The position numbers were made by a program, and so were the translations under genes. From Candidatus Nitrosomarinus catalinensis (GTDB lineage Archaea > Thermoproteota > Nitrososphaeria > Nitrososphaerales > Nitrosopumilaceae): a stretch of 32,000 nt of DNA. This document shows positions 5,307 to 23,908 of the stretch, piece by piece (position 1 is the stretch's first letter; every line of letters begins with the position of its first letter). The notes beneath the pieces are model-generated. The model worked only from the letters and a program-made list of their open reading frames with translations. It did not search any database and was not told the origin of the DNA. The stretch lies in contig NZ_CP021324.1 in assembly GCF_002156965.1 (NCBI RefSeq), positions 600,681-632,680 of the forward strand, given 5' to 3'.

Positions 5307-5756
5307 TTAAAATGTTTTTAATAGAAATCTGGCTGTTTTTTCATGTTTATCTGAAACACTGTCTATTGCTTCAAACATTGCTTGTTGGTTGATGTTATCT
5401 TTGTCATCTAATACGACATAGACTGCAATTTTTTGTTTTCCATCTTCGTTGATTATTTTACTTATTGCTTCAATTGAATTGCAAAAATCTGAAACTTTGT
5501 TGGCAAATTTTGTTCTTTCTTCTTCATTAAATCCTCTGTATCTGATAATTTGATTATTCTTCATTTCTATTTTTGCCCCTATTACTAGAATTCCTAATTG
5601 TGCTTTTGGTTCAAAAATTTCTACTGGTATTCCGTATTGGCCTGCATGTTTTACTAAAATTTGGAATGTGTTTTCTTCATTCTTGACTTGATCAAATGAC
5701 AAACTTTCATGAATTAACCATCTTTCTACATTATCTCTCATTCTTGATGCACTCAT
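5307..5756 (-). CDS. Hypothetical cytoplasmic protein (possibly DUF2299/YbjN-like; uncertain)
   Basis: 149-aa ORF with normal composition and an ATG start. No motif I can assign securely. Confidence 0.5.
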   Translation of the reverse strand: MSASRMRDNVERWLIHESLSFDQVKNEENTFQILVKHAGQYGIPVEIFEPKAQLGILVIGAKIEMKNNQIIRYRGFNEEERTKFANKVSDFCNSIEAISKIINEDGKQKIAVYVVLDDKDNINQQAMFEAIDSVSDKHEKTARFLLKTF

Positions 5757-5821
5757 TGTTGAATTTTTGAATTTACTTCTATATGATTCTAAATTTGATA
5801 AATTGCTAGTATCAATTAGAT

Positions 5822-5848
5822 ATGTTTCTAAATTCGAATTTAGAAATA
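5822..5848. repeat. Palindromic 27-nt intergenic repeat, copy 2
   Basis: Core identical to copy 1, with the perfect palindrome at 5825-5846. Lies between two minus-strand genes (3' end at 5882, start at 5756). Confidence 0.9.
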
Positions 5849-5881
5849 AGTTAAATTTAGGATGGGAAATTAGCGTGTTGG

Positions 5882-6109
5882 CTAGACGTTAACATTAAAG
5901 CCTGGATTGCTCACAACGTCAACTCCTAATAGCATGATGTTGAAAATAATTCCAATTACCATCATCACAATTCCTATGTATATGCAATTTTTTGCTTTAC
6001 GAGGATCATCTTTTCTGATGATCAAATAGCCAATAATTCCTCCAATCATTCCTATGAATATTGGAAGCAAATACCATGCATTACTTCTTGGTTTTTCTGA
6101 ATAAGTCAT
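5882..6109 (-). CDS. Small two-TM membrane protein
   Basis: 75 aa. Two hydrophobic helices (WYLLPIFIGMIGGIIGYLII and IYIGIVMMVIGIIFNIMLLGV) flank a basic loop RKDDPRKAK. Begins 4 nt after the upstream gene's stop. Confidence 0.55.
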   Translation of the reverse strand: MTYSEKPRSNAWYLLPIFIGMIGGIIGYLIIRKDDPRKAKNCIYIGIVMMVIGIIFNIMLLGVDVVSNPGFNVNV

Positions 6110-6694: not shown

Positions 6695-6985
6695 TTAATT
6701 ATTAAATTTTGAAAAGAATTCTTTAATTTCTTTAGAACGACTTTCTACTAAACCGACAATTTCTAAATGTTCATCGGCAGTAGGATCTCTTTTTTGTGAA
6801 TATTGAAATGCACTCAGTATTGAGCCAACTAATTCTCCTACAAAAAACCCACACAGAAAATCTCCCACATTTTCACAATCCCAAATATCTCCTACAGTTG
6901 GAGATACACCTGCTGCTTTGTAAGCCTCTAATGTTTGATCAATAAATTCTGTAGTTGTTTTAACAAACTCTGGATCAATATTCAT
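6695..6985 (-). CDS. Hypothetical protein, last gene of the r-protein transcription unit
   Basis: 96-aa ORF starting 16 nt after the uL6 stop. No recognisable motif. Confidence 0.5.
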   Translation of the reverse strand: MNIDPEFVKTTTEFIDQTLEAYKAAGVSPTVGDIWDCENVGDFLCGFFVGELVGSILSAFQYSQKRDPTADEHLEIVGLVESRSKEIKEFFSKFNN

Positions 6986-7000
6986 AAGTTAGTAGAAATT

Positions 7001-7558
7001 TTATTTGTCGATACCTTTTTTCTTTTCAAAAGCATAGATACCATCTAAGAATACTCTATGATCTTTGTTCTTTACTTTGGTTTTTAATTCAATATTTGCT
7101 GCAGTTTGAGTGATATCTGTCCAAACTTCTCCAGTGAGAATAACATCCTCTCCTTTTGGAATAACTTTGGTATTTCCAACTATGACTGTTTTTCTTGGTG
7201 CTCTTTCTCCTTGAAAGTTTTCAATGATTACATCCTTTCCTTCTACTTTCACTGTTATTGGAAAGTGTGCAAAAACAACTTTCATTTTAATCGTATATCC
7301 TGTAATCAGTCCTTCACAAATATTTCTAATCAATGATCTTGCTGCATGTAAAATTGCATAGTCTTTTTTTCTTTGATCAATTGTTGTTAGTAGAACTTTG
7401 CTATCTGTAATTTCTAAATTTACTGGAATCTTGCGGAAACTTTGATGTGTTTTTCCTAATGGACCTACAAATGTTAACATGTGTTTTTTTTGTGTAATTG
7501 TAACTCCTTCTGGAATCTCCACTTCGTCTTGAAATTTTTCTAATTGACTAGTAGACAT
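7001..7558 (-). CDS. rpl6: 50S ribosomal protein uL6
   Basis: 185 aa with an uL6-like two-domain sequence (VEIPEGVTIT...LTFVGPLGK...). Canonical position after uS8. Overlaps uS8 by 11 nt. Confidence 0.9.
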   Translation of the reverse strand: MSTSQLEKFQDEVEIPEGVTITQKKHMLTFVGPLGKTHQSFRKIPVNLEITDSKVLLTTIDQRKKDYAILHAARSLIRNICEGLITGYTIKMKVVFAHFPITVKVEGKDVIIENFQGERAPRKTVIVGNTKVIPKGEDVILTGEVWTDITQTAANIELKTKVKNKDHRVFLDGIYAFEKKKGIDK

Positions 7559-17047: not shown

Positions 17048-17088
17048 AAACTGTCACAACTTTATAGTCGTGTTTATTTTTAATTTTT

Positions 17089-17208
17089 ATGGGACGTAAA
17101 ACTAATTTTTTCCTTTTAGTGCCGTTAGGGACTTTTGCATCCATAATTTTTGGTTTTGCCATATACAACACATTATGTAAAAACTCGAATATTCCATTAG
17201 GATGTTAA
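17089..17208 (+). CDS. Possible 39-aa single-TM micropeptide
   Basis: Hand translation gives MGRKTNFFLLVPLGTFASIIFGFAIYNTLCKNSNIPLGC. ATG start and one hydrophobic helix. No other support. Confidence 0.25.
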   Translation: MGRKTNFFLLVPLGTFASIIFGFAIYNTLCKNSNIPLGC

Positions 17209-17349
17209 AAATCTAAGAATTTTTTATTCGTCGTCAGTTTCGTTTGCTTTGTCACGAACTTTTTTCATTATGCAAAACTTTGCAAGGCTTTTCTTTAAAT
17301 TCATAATTATTTGATAATTCTATAGTATTTATTTCTAATTTATTTTGAT

Positions 17350-17994
17350 CTATGCTTTGTTCTTTTTAGATTGTTTTGTGCCTGTACTGGATTTCTTTTT
17401 TAGTTTGACTACATTGTTATTTTGAATTTTCAAATTTTGATTAATTGTTTCCAATAAAGTAATTATTTGTGGATATTTTGTATGCATTGCAAGATCTTTT
17501 TCAATTATTAAAAGATAATATCTTAGTTCTCTAAGAATACGTCTTTTTTTAGATTTTGAAATAACTTGATTTTTTAATTCACTTAAGTTTGCTGATATGT
17601 CGCATAATTTAATTAATTTTGCATCTAATTCTGATTCTTTGATCTTTATTCCATATTCTTTTTGCCTTTGTTTTTTTGAAATAGTTCTTTTTTTTGTTAA
17701 CGATAATGTTGAATTATCATTTGTATCAATTACTAGTTTGGTTTCTGTTAATGATAAAATTAATGTTGAAACTCTTCTACCAAATTTTTCAAACAATTCA
17801 TCAAAACTTGTATCAGTGTGTTCCAAAATATCTTGTAACCATCCTGCACAAAGTACTTCCTCATCAATCACCCCTAAGCTTTTGAGCCTATTTACAACAT
17901 TTTCTAAGTGATTTGAAAATGAGACTCCAATCCCATTCAATTTCCCTCCATGTTTTGTCTTTGCAAATAATTCTGCATTTTTTAGTGAATTCAT
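17350..17994 (-). CDS. HD-domain protein of the RelA/SpoT/Mesh1 (HD_4-like) type with degenerate HD dyad and Lys-rich C-terminal tail
   Basis: AELFAKTKHGGK...NHLENV...LCAGWLQDILEHTDTSFDELFEKFGRRVSTLILSLTE...LIKLCDISANL aligns with the SpoT hydrolase pattern A..fA..aH.gQ...H...VA...aaLLHDvvEDT...FG..V..lV..vTk...IKLADRlhN. The ATG overlaps the helicase stop (ATGA). Confidence 0.6.
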   Translation of the reverse strand: MNSLKNAELFAKTKHGGKLNGIGVSFSNHLENVVNRLKSLGVIDEEVLCAGWLQDILEHTDTSFDELFEKFGRRVSTLILSLTETKLVIDTNDNSTLSLTKKRTISKKQRQKEYGIKIKESELDAKLIKLCDISANLSELKNQVISKSKKRRILRELRYYLLIIEKDLAMHTKYPQIITLLETINQNLKIQNNNVVKLKKKSSTGTKQSKKNKA

Positions 17995-20654
17995 TTACTT
18001 ACACTACACATGATTGAAAAAAAATCTAATGCTGATTTTTTTGATAAATTTTTGTTTTTTGTTTGACAATAATTTGTTGTAAATGTACATTTTGGACACC
18101 CTCCCCATTCATCTGATGCTGATTCTTGATCTGTATTTGATTCCTCCTTGCAATTACATTCACTAATCAAATCAAAACAGGTTTTCATAACTTCTTCAAA
18201 ATTTTCATAAATTATTTTGCTACACCCATTGTATCCGTCTGACGTGTTGTCAAACAAATGAATAATTCCATTTTCATAATATGCATCAATATCATTTGAT
18301 TCTGATTTTGTCAATATTTTGCTTGCATTAACTAAAACATGAGTAATTGTATGTATTTTTGAATCTGATGTAAATGAATTTTTTACATCTCCATTTATTT
18401 TAGATATGAATTCAGTTGGTATAGTAATACTCGTACAATAATGTTTTGAACTCCAACTAAAATTATTCCAATTTGATATTGTTTTTCCATCAAACGTTTC
18501 AAACTTATCTGACGTATCGTTATAATTTCCTTTTAGATACCCTGTAATCGTTCTATCTATTTTTATCAATCCATAACGTAAAGATAATTTTTTTAGATGT
18601 GAATTAATTTCTTTTTTAATTGATTCTTTTTCTGTCACTTGCATTAATGATGTCTTTACTATGGGAATAGTCCTTTTGTGAATTTCATTAGATTTTTCTA
18701 AAAATGCATTTGCACCGTTTTCAGTTTTATCTATTGATTTTACCTGATAATTTTCTTTATTAAAATGATATATTCCATTTTGATGAAGTTGATAATATCC
18801 AACAGGTGTGTCTCTGGTTCCGATTTTTTTTGAGTTGTGAAAAATTGTGATTTCTCCTGACGCTCCTCTTAGATTAATGCTATTTGCAAAATCAAAAAAT
18901 TTGGATTTGTCTGATTCTAATGCTGCATGTTTTTCCATTCCAATTGATAGAGTATGTTTTTCTGAAATTATGGAGTTTTCTTTGTTAATTTCAACATGAT
19001 GATTTTGATTCAGATATGCAGGGATATTTCGTGCAAAATAATGACATGCTGCATCCTCTGGATCAAAAACACAGATTGCATATGATTTTTGTCCTTTTCT
19101 TCCTGCTCTTCCAATTCTTTGAATAAATGAATCATATTCATTTTTGAATGCAGAAATTACTACGTCTACATTACCAATGTCAATTCCCAGCTCTAATGTA
19201 GGCGTACATGATAAAATATCTAACTCCCCTTCTTTCATTTGTGATTCATACATCTTTCTATCTTTTTGTTCTAAACCGCCACGATGAATTTGTATTCTTA
19301 TTTTTTCATTCATAGATTCTACATTTGATGCTAAAAATTCTGCATCATTATGACTATTGCTGAATACTAATTGTTTGGATTTTTTTTTATTGCATATTGT
19401 TGTAATCATTTCCATAGTTGTTCTTTGACCATATTTTCTTGGCATAATGAAAAATCGATGCATGTTTTGTTTTCTTTTTGACTCACTTTTGATATGTGTG
19501 AAAGATTTTTCAGGTAAATCATACATGTTTGAAAAAAATTCTTTAGGGTTATCTAACGTAGCAGATGCTCCTATGATTTGAAATTTTTTCATATAGTTTT
19601 TCATTCTTTTTAATACATGGTAAACATTAGAGCCGTGAAAACTTGTGTATGAATGTGCTTCATCCATTACAATTATTTTTGCATTTTTAAATAACTGATT
19701 CCATTTTTTATCTTGTAAAATTAAATGATAATTAATGAAATCAAAGTTTGTTGCTAGAATAATTGATTTCTTATATGACTCTGAAATTATTTTATCTTTG
19801 TACTGTGAATTCTGTCCGCCGTGAATTGAATATGTGGAAATTATATCATTTAATTCACATTTATCAATTAAATCTGAAATTTTTGAAACTTGATCATCAA
19901 TTAATGCATTTAATGGATAAACCAATAATACAAAAACACCTTCAATTGGTTTCTCTAATATTTTTTGCAAAATTGGAATTATGAATGCCTCTGTTTTTCC
20001 TGAACCTGTAGGTGCAGAAATAATTGAATTATCTCCATTTAAAATTGACCTAATTGATTCATTTTGAAATGGTAGAACTCCTGAAAAACCATATTTTTTT
20101 AATCCTTCAATAATTTTTGTTGATAAAACATCTTTGAGATTTTCTACTGGTATTTTTTCTGGCTCTAAGGAAAGTAATTTTTCATAATGAATAATTGCTA
20201 ATGTTTGATTCCTATGACCTTCTACTAATTCGTGAATAATTATATCGTTATCCACTTCTAATTTTGGTATTTTATTTACATCAAATAAAATATTTTCAGG
20301 TATTAAAATTTTTAATTCTGTTTTAATTTTTTTAGGAGTTACTATCTTTCCAATATTTTTTATTTCATCTGGAAAATAACCTGCTGAAATTTCTGGACCA
20401 TTACAACTATGTGGCTCATCTGTTCTTGCATCAAGAGGAATGAATTTACCACTATCTGATTTGAATTCATCATCCCAGTAAATTTCTGAACCGCAGCCCT
20501 TAGAACACTGTTTTGTTCTTCCTGAATAATTGACTCCGTATGTTGGTTTTCTTGGAATAATTTTTTCAGGATTGCATTTTGGACATATTCCTGGAGCTGC
20601 AACATCTTTCAAATTTTTTGAAAGTTTTGTATCGCATGTTGGGCAAAACTTCAT
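17991..20654 (-). CDS. Superfamily-2 DEAH-box helicase with N-terminal zinc ribbons and C-terminal DUF1998/MrfA-type Cys cluster (COG1205, YprA/MrfA-like)
   Basis: Helicase motifs: I SAPTGSGKTEAF, II VMDEAHSY, III GASATL, V TPTLELGIDIG, VI QRIGRAGRKG. N-terminus has CPTC...CPKC plus CSKGC...HSC. C-terminus has ECNC...GGCPKCTFTTNYCQTKNKNLSKKSA. Confidence 0.85.
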   Translation of the reverse strand: MKFCPTCDTKLSKNLKDVAAPGICPKCNPEKIIPRKPTYGVNYSGRTKQCSKGCGSEIYWDDEFKSDSGKFIPLDARTDEPHSCNGPEISAGYFPDEIKNIGKIVTPKKIKTELKILIPENILFDVNKIPKLEVDNDIIIHELVEGHRNQTLAIIHYEKLLSLEPEKIPVENLKDVLSTKIIEGLKKYGFSGVLPFQNESIRSILNGDNSIISAPTGSGKTEAFIIPILQKILEKPIEGVFVLLVYPLNALIDDQVSKISDLIDKCELNDIISTYSIHGGQNSQYKDKIISESYKKSIILATNFDFINYHLILQDKKWNQLFKNAKIIVMDEAHSYTSFHGSNVYHVLKRMKNYMKKFQIIGASATLDNPKEFFSNMYDLPEKSFTHIKSESKRKQNMHRFFIMPRKYGQRTTMEMITTICNKKKSKQLVFSNSHNDAEFLASNVESMNEKIRIQIHRGGLEQKDRKMYESQMKEGELDILSCTPTLELGIDIGNVDVVISAFKNEYDSFIQRIGRAGRKGQKSYAICVFDPEDAACHYFARNIPAYLNQNHHVEINKENSIISEKHTLSIGMEKHAALESDKSKFFDFANSINLRGASGEITIFHNSKKIGTRDTPVGYYQLHQNGIYHFNKENYQVKSIDKTENGANAFLEKSNEIHKRTIPIVKTSLMQVTEKESIKKEINSHLKKLSLRYGLIKIDRTITGYLKGNYNDTSDKFETFDGKTISNWNNFSWSSKHYCTSITIPTEFISKINGDVKNSFTSDSKIHTITHVLVNASKILTKSESNDIDAYYENGIIHLFDNTSDGYNGCSKIIYENFEEVMKTCFDLISECNCKEESNTDQESASDEWGGCPKCTFTTNYCQTKNKNLSKKSALDFFSIMCSVSK

Positions 20655-20971
20655 CTCTCTTGCTTTACTTTATTTTTGTCATAAAAGGATTTTTTAATAA
20701 TTTCATAAATTAGTTAATTGACTACGAGCTATTGGTTTACCCAAATTAAAAAGACAATATTATTTCTAGTTTAGTTGTAAATTAATTATGAAAAATAACA
20801 AAGAATTGAGATCATTAAAAATCGAATTAATGAAATCTCTAGATGGATCAAATAATGGATATTTTGGATTATCTTTAGAAACTTTAATTGATAATTGATA
20901 ATTTCATTCCTAGATCTGATTAATTATCCTACTTTTTCAAAATTCTTAAGTTATGATGTTTTAGGAATTTC

Positions 20972-21330: not shown

Positions 21331-21981
21331 CTAAATGAAGATATCTGCTTTTTTCTGTGCTACTTGTTGTCTTAATTCTGTTGGAACTTCTGGAATTGAT
21401 GATTTTGTTTGTCCTGCAATAACATTGTGTGCTTCTTCTAATATTGCAAGTGTGTCTGAATTTGTTTCAGTTTGTGTAGTAAAGTTATCTTCCATTCCTA
21501 CGGATGATCCTGACATAACATCTCCAAGTATTTGTGATAAGTCTTGCATTGAAGCATTTGCTTCAGGCATAATTCCACTTAATGATGGACTTAATCCTTT
21601 GATTATTGACATACATGGACTCAATGTTACAACAACATCTCCTAATTCTGAAACAGTGTCTAATCTAAGTTTAACTTGCTCCATGGATAGTTTTGCTCCA
21701 CTTACCATGTTTTTCATTTTTCTAACTTGTGCTAATTCTCCTGCATATGCTTGTGCATAAACTGGTTTGTTATTTCTCTGTGCATTTACACATTTTTCAA
21801 AAATTTTGTCATGTTTTGCTTGTAATTTTTCATTAATTCCTGATAATTTTGTAATTTGTGATTGTAGTTTTTTCTGAGCAAAATCAATTCTATTTTTTAA
21901 TGGTTCATCAGGCTTTACCTTGCCCATTACTTTTTGAGATATTGATTCTCCTTCTGTTTTATTCCATGAATTACTTATCAT
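21331..21981 (-). CDS. ESCRT-III / Snf7-family protein (CdvB-like paralogue)
   Basis: 216 aa. Long N-terminal coiled-coil hairpin (KNRIDFAQKKLQSQITKLSGINEKLQAKHDKIFEKCV...AGELAQVRKMKNM) and an acidic C-terminal region. Assignment is by overall Snf7-like architecture, not a strict motif. Confidence 0.55.
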   Translation of the reverse strand: MISNSWNKTEGESISQKVMGKVKPDEPLKNRIDFAQKKLQSQITKLSGINEKLQAKHDKIFEKCVNAQRNNKPVYAQAYAGELAQVRKMKNMVSGAKLSMEQVKLRLDTVSELGDVVVTLSPCMSIIKGLSPSLSGIMPEANASMQDLSQILGDVMSGSSVGMEDNFTTQTETNSDTLAILEEAHNVIAGQTKSSIPEVPTELRQQVAQKKADIFI

Positions 21982-22073: not shown

Positions 22074-23180
22074 TTATCCAAACGTAAAAGTGAATGCTTG
22101 AAATCCTTTGCCTTGGATATCCATTTGTAATATACCTGAGATGCTATTTTCACTATCAATGATGTTATACATTCCAGGATCACTTACAATCAATTTTCCA
22201 TTTAATGAAATATCTTTACCAGTATTTTTTTCATTAAGGGGAATTCCATCGAGGAATATTTCTATTTCTGCATAACTATTTGTTACAATATTGACTTCTT
22301 TTGCTTCAAAGTACATTTTGATACTTCCATTACTTTCAGTTAATTCCATACTGTCTGAATAATTTTTCCAATCTCCTACTGGATAGAATTTGTTTAATTC
22401 TATTTTTTTAGGCTCTGCATATGTTACAATTTTTTCTGGTTGAAATCCTTCATTACTTCCTAAATTATTTCTATTTTGTGCAAATTTATGTCCAAAATAT
22501 AATTCTGGAGTTCTAAATGGTGTATGTTCAAATTCTTCAATGTTAACTAATTCTTTGTTTGATACTGTTTTGATTCCCATTGACTGAGCTCTTTCATCAA
22601 GTAATTGCTGAATAATTTTTTCAGTTTCTTCATATGCCCCTTCCCCAATATGATCATATCTTAAATTCCCTTCATGATCTGCGATGTATTTTCTTGGCCA
22701 GTAATTGTTTTCAAATGCCTTCCAAGTTTCCATTTTGTTATCCATGACTATCGGATAATCAATTTCATATTTTTCTATTGCATCTTGTACGTTACTAGGA
22801 TCTTTTTCAAACTCAAATTCAGGTGAATGTATGCCAATAATTAGCAAACCTTCATCAGAATATTTTTCGTCCCATGATGTAATGAATGGTAATGTTCTGA
22901 TACAATTAATGCAACTGTAGGTCCATATGTCATAAAGTACAACTTTGTTGTCCATTTCTTGTTCTAATTTTTCAGGTGTTGTATTGAGGTAATGCTCTAT
23001 TCCTACTAGTTCAGGTGCTTTTTTTACTCCTGAATCATTAATGTTCAAAAATACTCCTGTTGTTGAACCTTGATTTTGTAATGATAAATCATCTAATCCC
23101 ACGAAAATTATGCCTAAAAATACTACTGCTGATATTATAATTCCCCCAAAAATGGATATGTTCTTTATTTCTGAATTCAT
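22074..23180 (-). CDS. Membrane-anchored thioredoxin-fold thiol:disulfide oxidoreductase with DipZ-like C-terminal domain
   Basis: N-terminal TM segment. Redox motif WTYSCINCIRTLP. LLIIGIHSPEFEFEKD...YPIVMDN...WPRKYIADHEGNLRYDHIGEG resembles the thioredoxin part of DipZ. 4-nt overlap with ccdA. Confidence 0.7.
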   Translation of the reverse strand: MNSEIKNISIFGGIIISAVVFLGIIFVGLDDLSLQNQGSTTGVFLNINDSGVKKAPELVGIEHYLNTTPEKLEQEMDNKVVLYDIWTYSCINCIRTLPFITSWDEKYSDEGLLIIGIHSPEFEFEKDPSNVQDAIEKYEIDYPIVMDNKMETWKAFENNYWPRKYIADHEGNLRYDHIGEGAYEETEKIIQQLLDERAQSMGIKTVSNKELVNIEEFEHTPFRTPELYFGHKFAQNRNNLGSNEGFQPEKIVTYAEPKKIELNKFYPVGDWKNYSDSMELTESNGSIKMYFEAKEVNIVTNSYAEIEIFLDGIPLNEKNTGKDISLNGKLIVSDPGMYNIIDSENSISGILQMDIQGKGFQAFTFTFG

Positions 23181-23908
23181 CCTAACATCACAATCTCATT
23201 GAGTAATGGAAAATTTGCAATATATGCAAGTTGATTTGTAAATATCAAAATTCCTAACATTATGATTAATCCTCCAATTAACAAATTATAATATTTTAGA
23301 TGTTTTGTCATGGAAGAAATTATTTTTGTTGATTTTGAAAAAAATATTCCCATTAAAATAAATGGAATTCCTAAACCTGCTGAATATGCTAATAATAAAC
23401 TGAATGAAACTGATGGTATTGTTGCAGCTAATGTTAGAATCGTTCCCAATATTGGACCAACACATGGTGTCCATCCAATCGCAAATGCTAAACCAAATAC
23501 GAAAGACATTGGATAACTTGATCTGAATTTTTTAATTTGAATTTTTTTTTCTTTATTTATAAAATTTATTTTTTGTGATAGTAATAGGAACACTCCAAAT
23601 ATGATCACAATTATTCCTGCAATTGAATTTAAATCCCCTAAAAATTGAGTAACTGAACTTGATAAAATACTATTAATTAAAACCCCTAAAGTTGAAAAAA
23701 CAACTGAAAACCCTAATACAAAAAATATTGTATTTGCAATAATGCTTCCTCTATTAATTTGAAAATTACTTTTTTGATTATGTTTAATCTCGTTTAATGT
23801 TGTTCCTGAAATATATGCCAAAAAGGCTGGAATCATAGGTAAAATACATGGAGCAATAAATGATCCTAGACCTGCAGTAAATGCAATTAGTATTGTAGGG
23901 TCAGCCAT
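23177..23908 (-). CDS. ccdA: Cytochrome c biogenesis / DsbD-family transmembrane electron transporter CcdA
   Basis: 243 aa and polytopic. Conserved Cys-Pro motifs SFIAPCILPMIP and GWTPCVGPILG. Confidence 0.85.
   Translation of the reverse strand: MADPTILIAFTAGLGSFIAPCILPMIPAFLAYISGTTLNEIKHNQKSNFQINRGSIIANTIFFVLGFSVVFSTLGVLINSILSSSVTQFLGDLNSIAGIIVIIFGVFLLLSQKINFINKEKKIQIKKFRSSYPMSFVFGLAFAIGWTPCVGPILGTILTLAATIPSVSFSLLLAYSAGLGIPFILMGIFFSKSTKIISSMTKHLKYYNLLIGGLIIMLGILIFTNQLAYIANFPLLNEIVMLG

Follow-up and report, generated by a model that had tools for sequence, protein, structure and literature searches.

In the genome of Candidatus Nitrosomarinus catalinensis (NCBI RefSeq assembly GCF_002156965.1, contig NZ_CP021324.1), a gene for a predicted helicase of the YprA/MrfA family is followed directly by a gene for a small HD-domain protein. 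We analyzed both within a stretch of 32,000 nucleotides (contig positions 600,681 to 632,680, forward strand), referred to below as the window. The pair is probably a lineage-specific operonic juxtaposition of a repair-type helicase of the "YprA-only" kind and a degenerate MESH1-like neighbor, and not a conserved repair or defense system. An initial annotation had proposed a two-gene module. Conservation of the gene neighborhood largely fails to bear this out: the overlapping pair occurs in only one Nitrosopumilus subclade, and one of 80 HD-centered loci has the two genes co-directional. The genes and their junction are as follows (aa, amino acids; ORF, open reading frame; SF2, superfamily 2; AF2, AlphaFold2).

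17991 to 20654, minus strand: SF2 helicase gene, YprA/MrfA family, 887 aa (ORF; Pfam DEAD, Helicase_C, and MZB; PDB match 6znp)
17350 to 17994, minus strand: HD_4 protein gene, MESH1/small-alarmone-hydrolase-like, 214 aa (ORF, Pfam, AF2 model, Foldseek)
17991 to 17994, minus strand: ATGA stop/start overlap of the helicase and HD genes (read in the sequence)

At the junction, which reads ...AGT AAA TGA ATT..., the ATG of the HD gene (17994–17992) and the TGA of the helicase gene (17993–17991) share 4 bp. The identical overlap is present in the related loci L001, L005, and L087–L090, across synonymous divergence (dS) of up to ~0.9. Overlapping ORFs are frequent in this compact genome. Since 8 of the 28 co-directional ORF pairs within the window overlap, the ATGA junction alone does not demonstrate a partnership between helicase and HD protein. 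Thus, of what had been read into the junction, the overlap itself stands and co-transcription of the two genes is supported by the sequence, but a functional partnership does not follow. An attractive domain combination joined by a stop/start overlap is no proof of a system, and if the juxtaposition reading holds, the pair should stay out of catalogs of defense and repair systems.

Genomic context of the helicase and HD genes

A diverse alignment of HD proteins was used to search GTDB, each species being represented by one genome, and the best 80 loci of 343 relatives were kept. These 80 loci span Nitrosopumilus, Nitrosarchaeum, Nitrosotalea, Nitrosotenuis, Nitrosopelagicus, and Nitrososphaera, together with a few DPANN archaea and bacteria. 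By tblastn, a co-directional helicase lies directly upstream of the HD gene at a single locus, L005, whose HD protein is 74% identical to that of the window. At L048, an ortholog of the helicase adjoins the HD gene in convergent orientation, and the 3′ ends overlap by 4 bp. Apart from these two, tblastn revealed no YprA-like helicase within 5 kb of the HD gene at the best 80 loci, and the unlinked HD genes lie in varied, lineage-specific housekeeping contexts. Two complete Nitrosopumilus genomes have the genes far from each other: on the 1.86-Mb contig CATOSM010000001.1, the two genes are ~700 kb apart (helicase at ~252 kb, HD gene at ~961 kb); in Nitrosopumilus sp. S4, the distance is ~530 kb. 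The HD_4 proteins of the MESH1/small alarmone hydrolase (SAH) type form a stand-alone gene family, common in Nitrosopumilaceae, whose members as a rule lie away from the helicase gene.

Starting from the helicases of unlinked lineages, a metagenome scan yielded 80 helicase-centered loci, which fall into four groups. In group A, whose helicases share at least 78% identity with that of the window, the HD gene is immediately downstream and co-directional at all 38 loci with enough flanking sequence, and the pair always occupies the slot between the genes for a 113-aa protein and a DUF371 protein. In group B (helicase 70%–77% identical; L162, L207, L159, L160, and also L093), the HD gene lies 2.0–2.6 kb downstream on the opposite strand. 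Group C (65%–67% identical; L161 and L200, like L048) has an adjacent, convergent HD gene. For group D (67%–70% identical), an HD gene was found at none of the 17 loci having at least 3 kb of downstream flank. Groups B and D have a slot in common, made up of a PDDEXK_1 gene, the helicase, and the Trp operon; group B has 4–5 kb more, an array on the minus strand that comprises small ORFs, the gene of a SHOCT protein, and the HD gene. In the helicase tree, which was read unrooted (contigs of a 54%-identity group lacked a full-length ORF), group A is monophyletic, group B appears in two separate places, and group C is nested among D. The helicase is present without an HD gene nearby in N. adriaticus and at L094. 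Overall, the helicase is spread across Nitrosopumilus at 65%–97% identity, in at least five chromosomal slots and mostly without a partner gene. The tight helicase-HD operon is confined to clade A, and looser proximity of the two genes is patchy.

The locus L004, from a 2.19-Mb genome, encodes a helicase with 70% identity in the slot that the window pair occupies, between the 113-aa gene and DUF371, and lacks the HD gene. The sequence right after its helicase stop codon matches the sequence right after the HD stop codon in the window.

17048 to 17349, no strand assigned: conserved spacer 3′ of the pair, the boundary of the HD presence/absence difference (74%–78% nucleotide identity to L004)

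In this spacer of L004, tblastn detected no remnant of an HD gene, and the only homology was that of the flanking spacer. As the flanking homology is intact and no remnant is present, the HD ORF represents a precise presence/absence difference of ~650 bp. Recent in-place pseudogenization of an L004 HD gene was rejected because tblastn found no remnant.

Several further observations concern the helicase loci. Orthologs at 65%–76% identity (L085, L086, L092, L093, L094, and L048) occupy at least five slots, often among small hypothetical ORFs. These varied slots and the lower GC content of the window's helicase-HD region resemble the behavior of the flexible genome, though the helicase gene is under strong purifying selection. 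Just upstream of the L004 helicase (L004 5160–5940) lies ~0.8 kb of unusually high GC, with ORFs rich in Ala, Ser, Pro, and Arg, in a genome that is otherwise ~30% GC. Rfam recognized no family in this stretch, which could be a foreign insertion or an assembly artifact. Two clade A contigs contain an extra 404-aa ORF between the 113-aa gene and the helicase (L088 169–1383; L090 783–1997), and its C-terminal ~88 aa resemble the C terminus of a 791-aa protein from the lineage B island. The slot between the 113-aa gene and the helicase is an insertion hotspot. We found no relatives of the helicase on viral contigs in IMG/VR and therefore rejected a viral or mobile-element origin for it. The HD relatives on IMG/VR contigs are at most 39% identical, and none adjoins a helicase.

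The HD genes have neighbors of their own. In five unlinked Nitrosopumilus genomes (L010, L011, L014, L017, and L018; ~5607–6010, plus strand), a helical protein of 132–147 aa with no Pfam family is encoded directly 3′ of the HD_4 gene. The same protein is encoded in the lineage B island, between the HD gene and the helicase (L162 13146–13589 and L093 6875–7312, both minus strand), and the window has no homolog of it. In S4 (L091 1–8561), the HD_4 gene is located beside a gene for a DndB-like protein, two N6/N4 DNA methyltransferase genes, and genes for a metallo-beta-lactamase-fold protein and an HsdR-like helicase of the type I restriction kind, a setting that looks like a defense island. At L015 (4992–6970), an HD_4 gene precedes, by 66 bp and in the same orientation, a gene for a 451-aa DEAD-box RNA helicase whose tail is rich in RGG, an arrangement that appears sporadic. 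MESH1/SAH-like HD_4 genes are found widely in Nitrosopumilaceae and related ammonia oxidizers (loci L005–L074 of the genome scan), although archaea were thought to have such hydrolases only sporadically. A 2011 survey of RelA/SpoT homologs described small alarmone hydrolases as sporadic in archaea and found none in the ammonia-oxidizer group (Atkinson et al., 2011).

The helicase and its relation to known systems

The following regions were distinguished in the helicase, from the N to the C terminus.

20403 to 20654, minus strand: N-terminal double Zn-binding module, aa 1–84 (conserved C4, C7, C24, and C27, plus C50, C54, H82, and C84)
19092 to 20072, minus strand: RecA1/RecA2 core, aa 195–521, with motifs I GSGKT, II DEAH, III SAT, and VI QRIGRAGR (Pfam)
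18375 to 18896, minus strand: beta-rich region between the core and MZB, aa ~587–760, candidate OB-CON (weak profile match)
18084 to 18344, minus strand: MZB/DUF1998 Zn-binding domain, aa 771–857, with C833, C835, C853, and C856 (PF09369)

The initial annotation had described an 887-aa SF2 helicase with all core motifs and a C-terminal cysteine cluster of the DUF1998/MrfA type, and both descriptions were confirmed by the ORFs and by Pfam. The motifs GSGKT (aa 217–221), DEAH (331–334), SAT (364–366), and QRIGRAGR (512–519) are invariant in 31 homologs. Pfam assigned DEAD with 113.7 bits (aa 195–372) and Helicase_C with 68.7 bits (aa 417–521). The MZB/MrfA Zn-binding family PF09369 matched aa 771–857 with 31.2 bits, above its cut-off of 24.2, and C833, C835, C853, C856, and C863 are conserved in 100% of the 31 homologs. 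C-terminal to MZB, Pfam detected no domain, and there is no fused nuclease.

Searches against the PDB placed the Bacillus subtilis helicase YprA/MrfA (6znp) first, both with the single sequence (E = 1e-38) and with a profile (E = 4e-43). A 2108-aa chain annotated as "DEAD/DEAH box helicase" (9tu7_Y), in our own reading a helicase of the Druantia DruE type although its PDB entry gives no such name, trails with E = 2e-19 against 1e-38 for MrfA. Generic DEAD-box proteins also rank well behind MrfA. In MrfA, OB and CON domains between RecA2 and MZB build a "canopy" architecture. Matches to 6znp are collinear along the chain but weak for residues 487–557 (the OB region) and 685–723 (the MZB region). 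The AF2 model of the helicase was built from a shallow alignment (31 sequences, 68%–97% identity) and is of low confidence, with a predicted local distance difference test score (pLDDT) of 57 and a predicted template-modeling score (pTM) of 0.38. We set it aside for fold searching and relied on the profile search against the PDB instead; the model has beta strands at aa 600–744. The NCBIfam and PADLOC models for Lhr-like/BrxHI, SngC, DruE, DrmA, and Cas3 matched the RecA core only, far under the family cut-offs.

The four-cysteine Zn site of DUF1998 within MZB is the defining feature of the MrfA family (Roske et al., 2021). As an SF2 core and this four-cysteine site are present, with no fused nuclease and no defense partners, we assigned the helicase from its sequence to the YprA/MrfA family and, within it, to the "YprA-only" type; a double zinc module at the N terminus is an addition. 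This module, which the initial annotation had overlooked, is part of an N-terminal extension of ~170 aa. All eight of its Zn-type ligands, in two sites (C4/C7/C24/C27 and C50/C54/H82/C84), are conserved in 100% of the 31 homologs, and Pfam has no match to it. A stand-alone 84-aa homolog of the module, 36% identical, is encoded in Nitrosopelagicus-like genomes (L054 2096–2350, minus strand; also L056 790–1014). Two genes away from this stand-alone gene is that of another DEAH helicase, of 570 aa, and an SNase-like gene and an HD_4 gene lie within the 3 kb that follow.

Bell et al. (2025) surveyed ~52,000 YprA homologs in a preprint and divided the family into a defense branch and a repair/housekeeping branch. 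The defense branch contains DISARM, Dpd, Druantia, ARMADA, BRIGADE, and TALON, with characteristic partner genes or fused nucleases. Members of the repair/housekeeping branch are either "YprA only," without conserved genomic context, or paired with MrfB. The window helicase resembles the "YprA-only" helicases, as well as B. subtilis MrfA and M. smegmatis SftH, in having an SF2 DEAH core followed by MZB/DUF1998 with four invariant cysteines. MrfA is also its best match among solved structures, and as in other "YprA-only" helicases, there is no conserved operon partner in most genomes. It differs from all of these in its N-terminal extension with two conserved Zn sites, in its archaeal host (Nitrosopumilus), and in the HD_4 gene that overlaps its stop codon in one subclade. 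Most likely, judging from homology to MrfA and SftH, the protein would act as an ATP-driven 3′-to-5′ DNA translocase/helicase in DNA repair or genome maintenance.

The layout also recalls MrfAB, the YprA-YprB pair that repairs mitomycin adducts, in which a YprA-type helicase gene precedes a small downstream gene in one operon. Here, however, the downstream gene encodes a MESH1-like HD_4 protein with a degenerate site in place of a DnaQ-like 3′–5′ exonuclease, and the pairing is limited to one subclade. No gene for an MrfB-like exonuclease was found in the neighborhood of the window pair or of the related loci. The initial annotation had also suggested that the combination was not a described system. 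This held: PADLOC had no match for the HD protein and matched only the helicase core, and an HD partner of a YprA helicase is not mentioned in the portion of the 2025 survey that was available (Bell et al., 2025).

An antiviral role was considered for the pair, or for the helicase alone, related to DISARM, Druantia, or ARMADA and with the HD protein as an effector or alarmone-degrading component. With these systems and Dpd, the window helicase has the helicase superfamily and the DUF1998/MZB module in common. Its occurrence in differing chromosomal slots, often among small hypothetical ORFs, would fit such a role, as would the GC content of the helicase-HD region (26%–28%, compared to 30%–34% in the flanks) and the methyltransferase, DndB-like, and HsdR-like genes beside the HD gene of S4. 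Nevertheless, we regard a defense function as highly improbable. None of the defining partners (DrmB/DrmC, a PglX-like methylase, a BrxHII-like helicase, Dpd genes, or a fused Vsr or PLD nuclease) is present in the window or at related loci. Among solved structures, the repair helicase MrfA is the nearest relative, with 9tu7_Y far behind. The surroundings, which include the ribosomal protein operon, proteasome alpha, and CdvB, belong to the core genome; the helicase is widely retained under strong purifying selection, and viral contigs contain no relatives of it. Because no defense partner lies nearby, the PADLOC matches are confined to the core, and MrfA is the best match, we placed the helicase with the repair type.

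The HD protein and its relation to the helicase

Three regions of the HD protein are of importance below.

17812 to 17841, minus strand: degenerate catalytic signature WLQDILEHTD, aa 52–61, canonically WLHDxxEDTD (alignment to MESH1)
17695 to 17745, minus strand: clade-specific 17-aa insertion (ETKLVIDTNDNSTLSLT, aa 84–100), a predicted beta-hairpin (alignment)
17353 to 17385, minus strand: Lys-rich disordered C-terminal tail, aa 204–214 (pLDDT < 50)

The HD fold of the RelA/SpoT/Mesh1 type that the initial annotation had recognized was borne out by three lines of analysis. Pfam HD_4 (PF13328) matched the 214-aa protein with 35.2 bits (cut-off 27.2). A phmmer search of PDB sequences returned MESH1 from Drosophila and human as well as small alarmone hydrolases from bacteria. 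An AF2 model from 45 sequences reached a pLDDT of 87.8 and a pTM of 0.84, and its top Foldseek matches were MESH1 (3nqw, 5vxa, and 9chy), the P. aeruginosa SAH (6yvc), and RelH (7qoc), with a target template-modeling (TM) score of ~0.79 and E values down to 6e-8. The protein, as modeled, thus adopts the HD_4 fold of the MESH1/SAH type.

The active site, whose non-canonical signature had gone unremarked in the initial annotation, departs from that of its relatives. Where MESH1 has LLHDtvEDTD or LLHDvvEDTD, the window protein has WLQDILEHTD: Gln54 replaces the metal-binding His in the HD dyad, and His59 stands where the catalytic ED pair has its Asp. As a result of the first change, the complete metal-binding H...HD...D set fails, with H29, D55, and D132 kept and the dyad His replaced by Q54. 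H29, D55, E58, D132, and N136 are retained, invariant or nearly so. Among the 120 closest homologs (at least 75% identity, all from Nitrosopumilus), the motif is QD..EH in 52, QD..EY in 52, QN..EY in six, QE..EH in three, QD..ED in three, QD..EN in three, and QG..EH in one; the dyad His is kept in none of the 120. By contrast, nearly all relatives at 58% identity or less carry the canonical HD..ED or else keep HD while the second acid varies. Since the catalytic positions drift within the clade, the protein is unlikely to be under selection for catalysis. In human MESH1, E65A is catalytically null, and D66K is the variant that was crystallized with bound NADPH or PAPS (3′-phosphoadenosine 5′-phosphosulfate). 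From its sequence, the window protein is most likely a weak or non-catalytic nucleotide-binding derivative.

Comparison with MESH1 (human and Drosophila), SAH, RelH, and PaSAH brings out both kinship and change. The single-domain, all-helical HD_4 fold is shared, together with the first His, the dyad Asp, the Glu of the ED pair, the distal Asp, and the Asn. The window protein differs in the dyad His (Gln) and the ED Asp (His; Tyr, Asn, or Asp in relatives), in its 17-aa hairpin insertion and Lys-rich tail, and in its host, an archaeon without a known synthetase for the alarmones (p)ppGpp, guanosine tetra- and pentaphosphate. To our knowledge, no (p)ppGpp synthetase has been described in Nitrosopumilaceae and related ammonia oxidizers. 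The dyad was lost independently in other HD_4 proteins of Nitrosopumilus (L159 ~6806–7336, minus strand, WLCS; L160 7192–7737, minus strand, WLCN; L006 2357–2935, plus strand, WLQD), with the motifs CS..EN at L159 and CN..ED at L160. Across HD_4 proteins of Nitrosopumilaceae, the second residue of the ED pair can be D, N, K, Y, S, A, Q, G, or H. The family in these archaea may not depend on canonical MESH1 chemistry.

These findings bear on the proposal that the HD protein fills a nuclease slot, as a nuclease or phosphohydrolase effector of the helicase comparable to the HD domain of Cas3 or to MrfB with MrfA. The HD gene is probably co-transcribed with the helicase gene and takes the downstream position that nucleases hold in other YprA operons. 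However, HD_4/MESH1/SAH proteins are nucleotide pyrophosphohydrolases/phosphatases that hydrolyze small-molecule nucleotides, with Mn-dependent activity on (p)ppGpp, NADPH, or other 3′-phosphorylated nucleotides as a family trait, and are not a nuclease HD family. In addition, the dyad His has become Gln and the ED Asp has become His, Tyr, or Asn, both positions varying within the clade, and the null phenotype of MESH1 E65A and the substrate-bound D66K crystal form tell against catalysis with such a site. The likeness to Cas3, an HD-superfamily protein together with an SF2 helicase, is superficial: HD_4 is not the Cas3 HD nuclease family, the protein lacks the catalytic dyad, and CRISPR and Cascade genes are absent. 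The HD protein had no PADLOC or Cas3 HD match, and Pfam assigned HD_4 only. An effector role is therefore extremely unlikely.

The linked HD proteins share a derived structural feature. The 17-aa insertion is present only in helicase-linked HD proteins (those of the window, P0013, P0241, and L005) and absent from unlinked relatives; AF2 models it as a hairpin, with strands at aa 87–89 and 99–101 and lower pLDDT. In the HD tree, a long stem branch leads to the linked clade. The ratio of nonsynonymous to synonymous substitution rates (dN/dS) is 0.17–0.23 for the linked HD gene; unlinked HD genes of comparable divergence have a median of 0.10, a difference of ~2-fold. For the helicase, it is 0.08–0.13, indicating strong purifying selection. 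L005 is linked, with the ATGA overlap and the 17-aa insertion, yet has canonical HD and ED motifs. This combination indicates that linkage and insertion came first and the loss of catalytic residues later. In such a sequence of events, in the common ancestor of one Nitrosopumilus subclade, an HD ORF would have ended up precisely at the stop codon of the helicase, creating the ATGA overlap. The linked genes would then have been co-transcribed and probably translationally coupled. The linked HD protein would have acquired the hairpin insertion and evolved ~2-fold faster, and most linked copies would later have lost the dyad His and the Asp of the ED pair while still under purifying selection.

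Several observations weigh against reading the pair as a lineage-specific juxtaposition. All members of clade A preserve the 4-bp overlap, across dS of ~0.9. The hairpin insertion and basic tail shared by linked HD proteins could be an adaptation to a partner, and the HD gene remains under purifying selection despite its lost catalytic residues, with the pocket-lining H29, D55, E58, D132, and N136 retained. The HD gene also lies 3′ of the helicase in two lineages and slots beyond clade A (adjacent and convergent at L048, L161, and L200; 2.0–2.6 kb away and convergent at L093, L162, L207, L159, and L160), giving three lineages, three configurations, and three slots. Such recurrent proximity is unexpected under naive random placement in a genome of ~1.8 Mb. 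Finally, the dyad is lost in most of clade A and in the helicase-proximal L159 and L160, compared to one of ~55 unlinked HD genes with a readable motif (L006), although these counts of dyad loss and proximity are small, phylogenetically non-independent, and in part ascertained through the finding itself.

These points would be accounted for by a genuine partnership, in which the MESH1-like protein is a non-catalytic nucleotide-binding subunit, regulatory or structural, of the YprA-type helicase. Helicase activity would be coupled to the level of a 3′-phosphorylated nucleotide (an alarmone, NADPH, CoA, or a pAp-like compound), and the clade A operon would represent the extreme, most derived state of an association that is otherwise looser. 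There is a precedent in RelA, where a hydrolase-inactive HD domain has kept the HD_4 fold under selection and has a structural or regulatory role (Atkinson et al., 2011), although that domain is fused into a multi-domain protein and the window HD protein is separate. We consider a partnership unlikely. In most lineages, including complete genomes, the two genes are far apart or no HD gene lies near the helicase. The convergent arrangements of lineages B and C preclude co-transcription, and in lineage B the HD gene is part of its own minus-strand array, along with a SHOCT gene and other small ones. In unlinked genomes, the HD gene has another recurrent neighbor, the 132–147-aa protein. The dyad is also lost at L006, whose short contig contains no helicase. 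Moreover, both genes tend toward variable regions, which raises the likelihood that they come together by chance.

A more specific proposal is that a MESH1-like hydrolase became a non-catalytic nucleotide-binding pseudoenzyme that serves as an alarmone- or metabolite-sensing regulatory subunit of the YprA-type helicase in several Nitrosopumilus lineages. This is likewise unlikely, and what standing it has comes from the three proximity configurations, the repeated loss of the dyad near the helicase, and the clade A operon with its hairpin insertion. Were the partnership genuine, it would provide the first case of a YprA helicase whose partner is a pseudoenzyme and not a nuclease, and it might connect nucleotide signaling with DNA repair in abundant marine archaea. 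On the preferred reading, a juxtaposition, the repeated loss of the dyad under continued selection, above all beside a YprA-type helicase, is of modest interest, as is the wide occurrence of MESH1-like hydrolase genes in Nitrosopumilaceae.

Flanks of the pair

In the window and at related loci, the pair is surrounded by genes for CdvB/Snf7, the 113-aa protein, DUF371, proteasome alpha, and the ribosomal protein operon. The likely regulatory region lies upstream.

20655 to 20971, no strand assigned: divergent intergenic region 5′ of the helicase, likely the promoter region of the pair (AT-rich, TTTTAT)

A TTTTAT element is located ~30 nucleotides 5′ of the helicase ATG within this AT-rich region, which from its sequence is the likely promoter region for both genes. 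Among the 132–147-aa HD neighbor, the 113-aa protein, and the small island proteins, Pfam recognized only SHOCT and Snf7, and an Rfam scan of the window returned only a tRNA-Asn.

Further 5′ of the pair, the gene for the CdvB/Snf7-like protein (21331–21981, minus strand; Pfam Snf7, 28 bits) is a core gene kept at all related loci. The same is true of a DsbD-Redoxin pair (22074–23908, minus strand) 5′ of the helicase, whose two genes are joined by another 4-bp overlap. The spacer 3′ of the HD gene, between it and DUF371, carries two conserved micro-ORFs, neither of which is among the called genes of related contigs. One encodes 26 aa (MNLKKSLAKFCIMKKVRDKANETDDE; 17224–17304, minus strand); the other encodes a hydrophobic peptide of 39 aa (MGRKTNFFLLVPLGTFASIIFGFAIYNTLCKNSNIPLGC; 17089–17208, plus strand). 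Both are conserved at L001, L004, L005, and L087.

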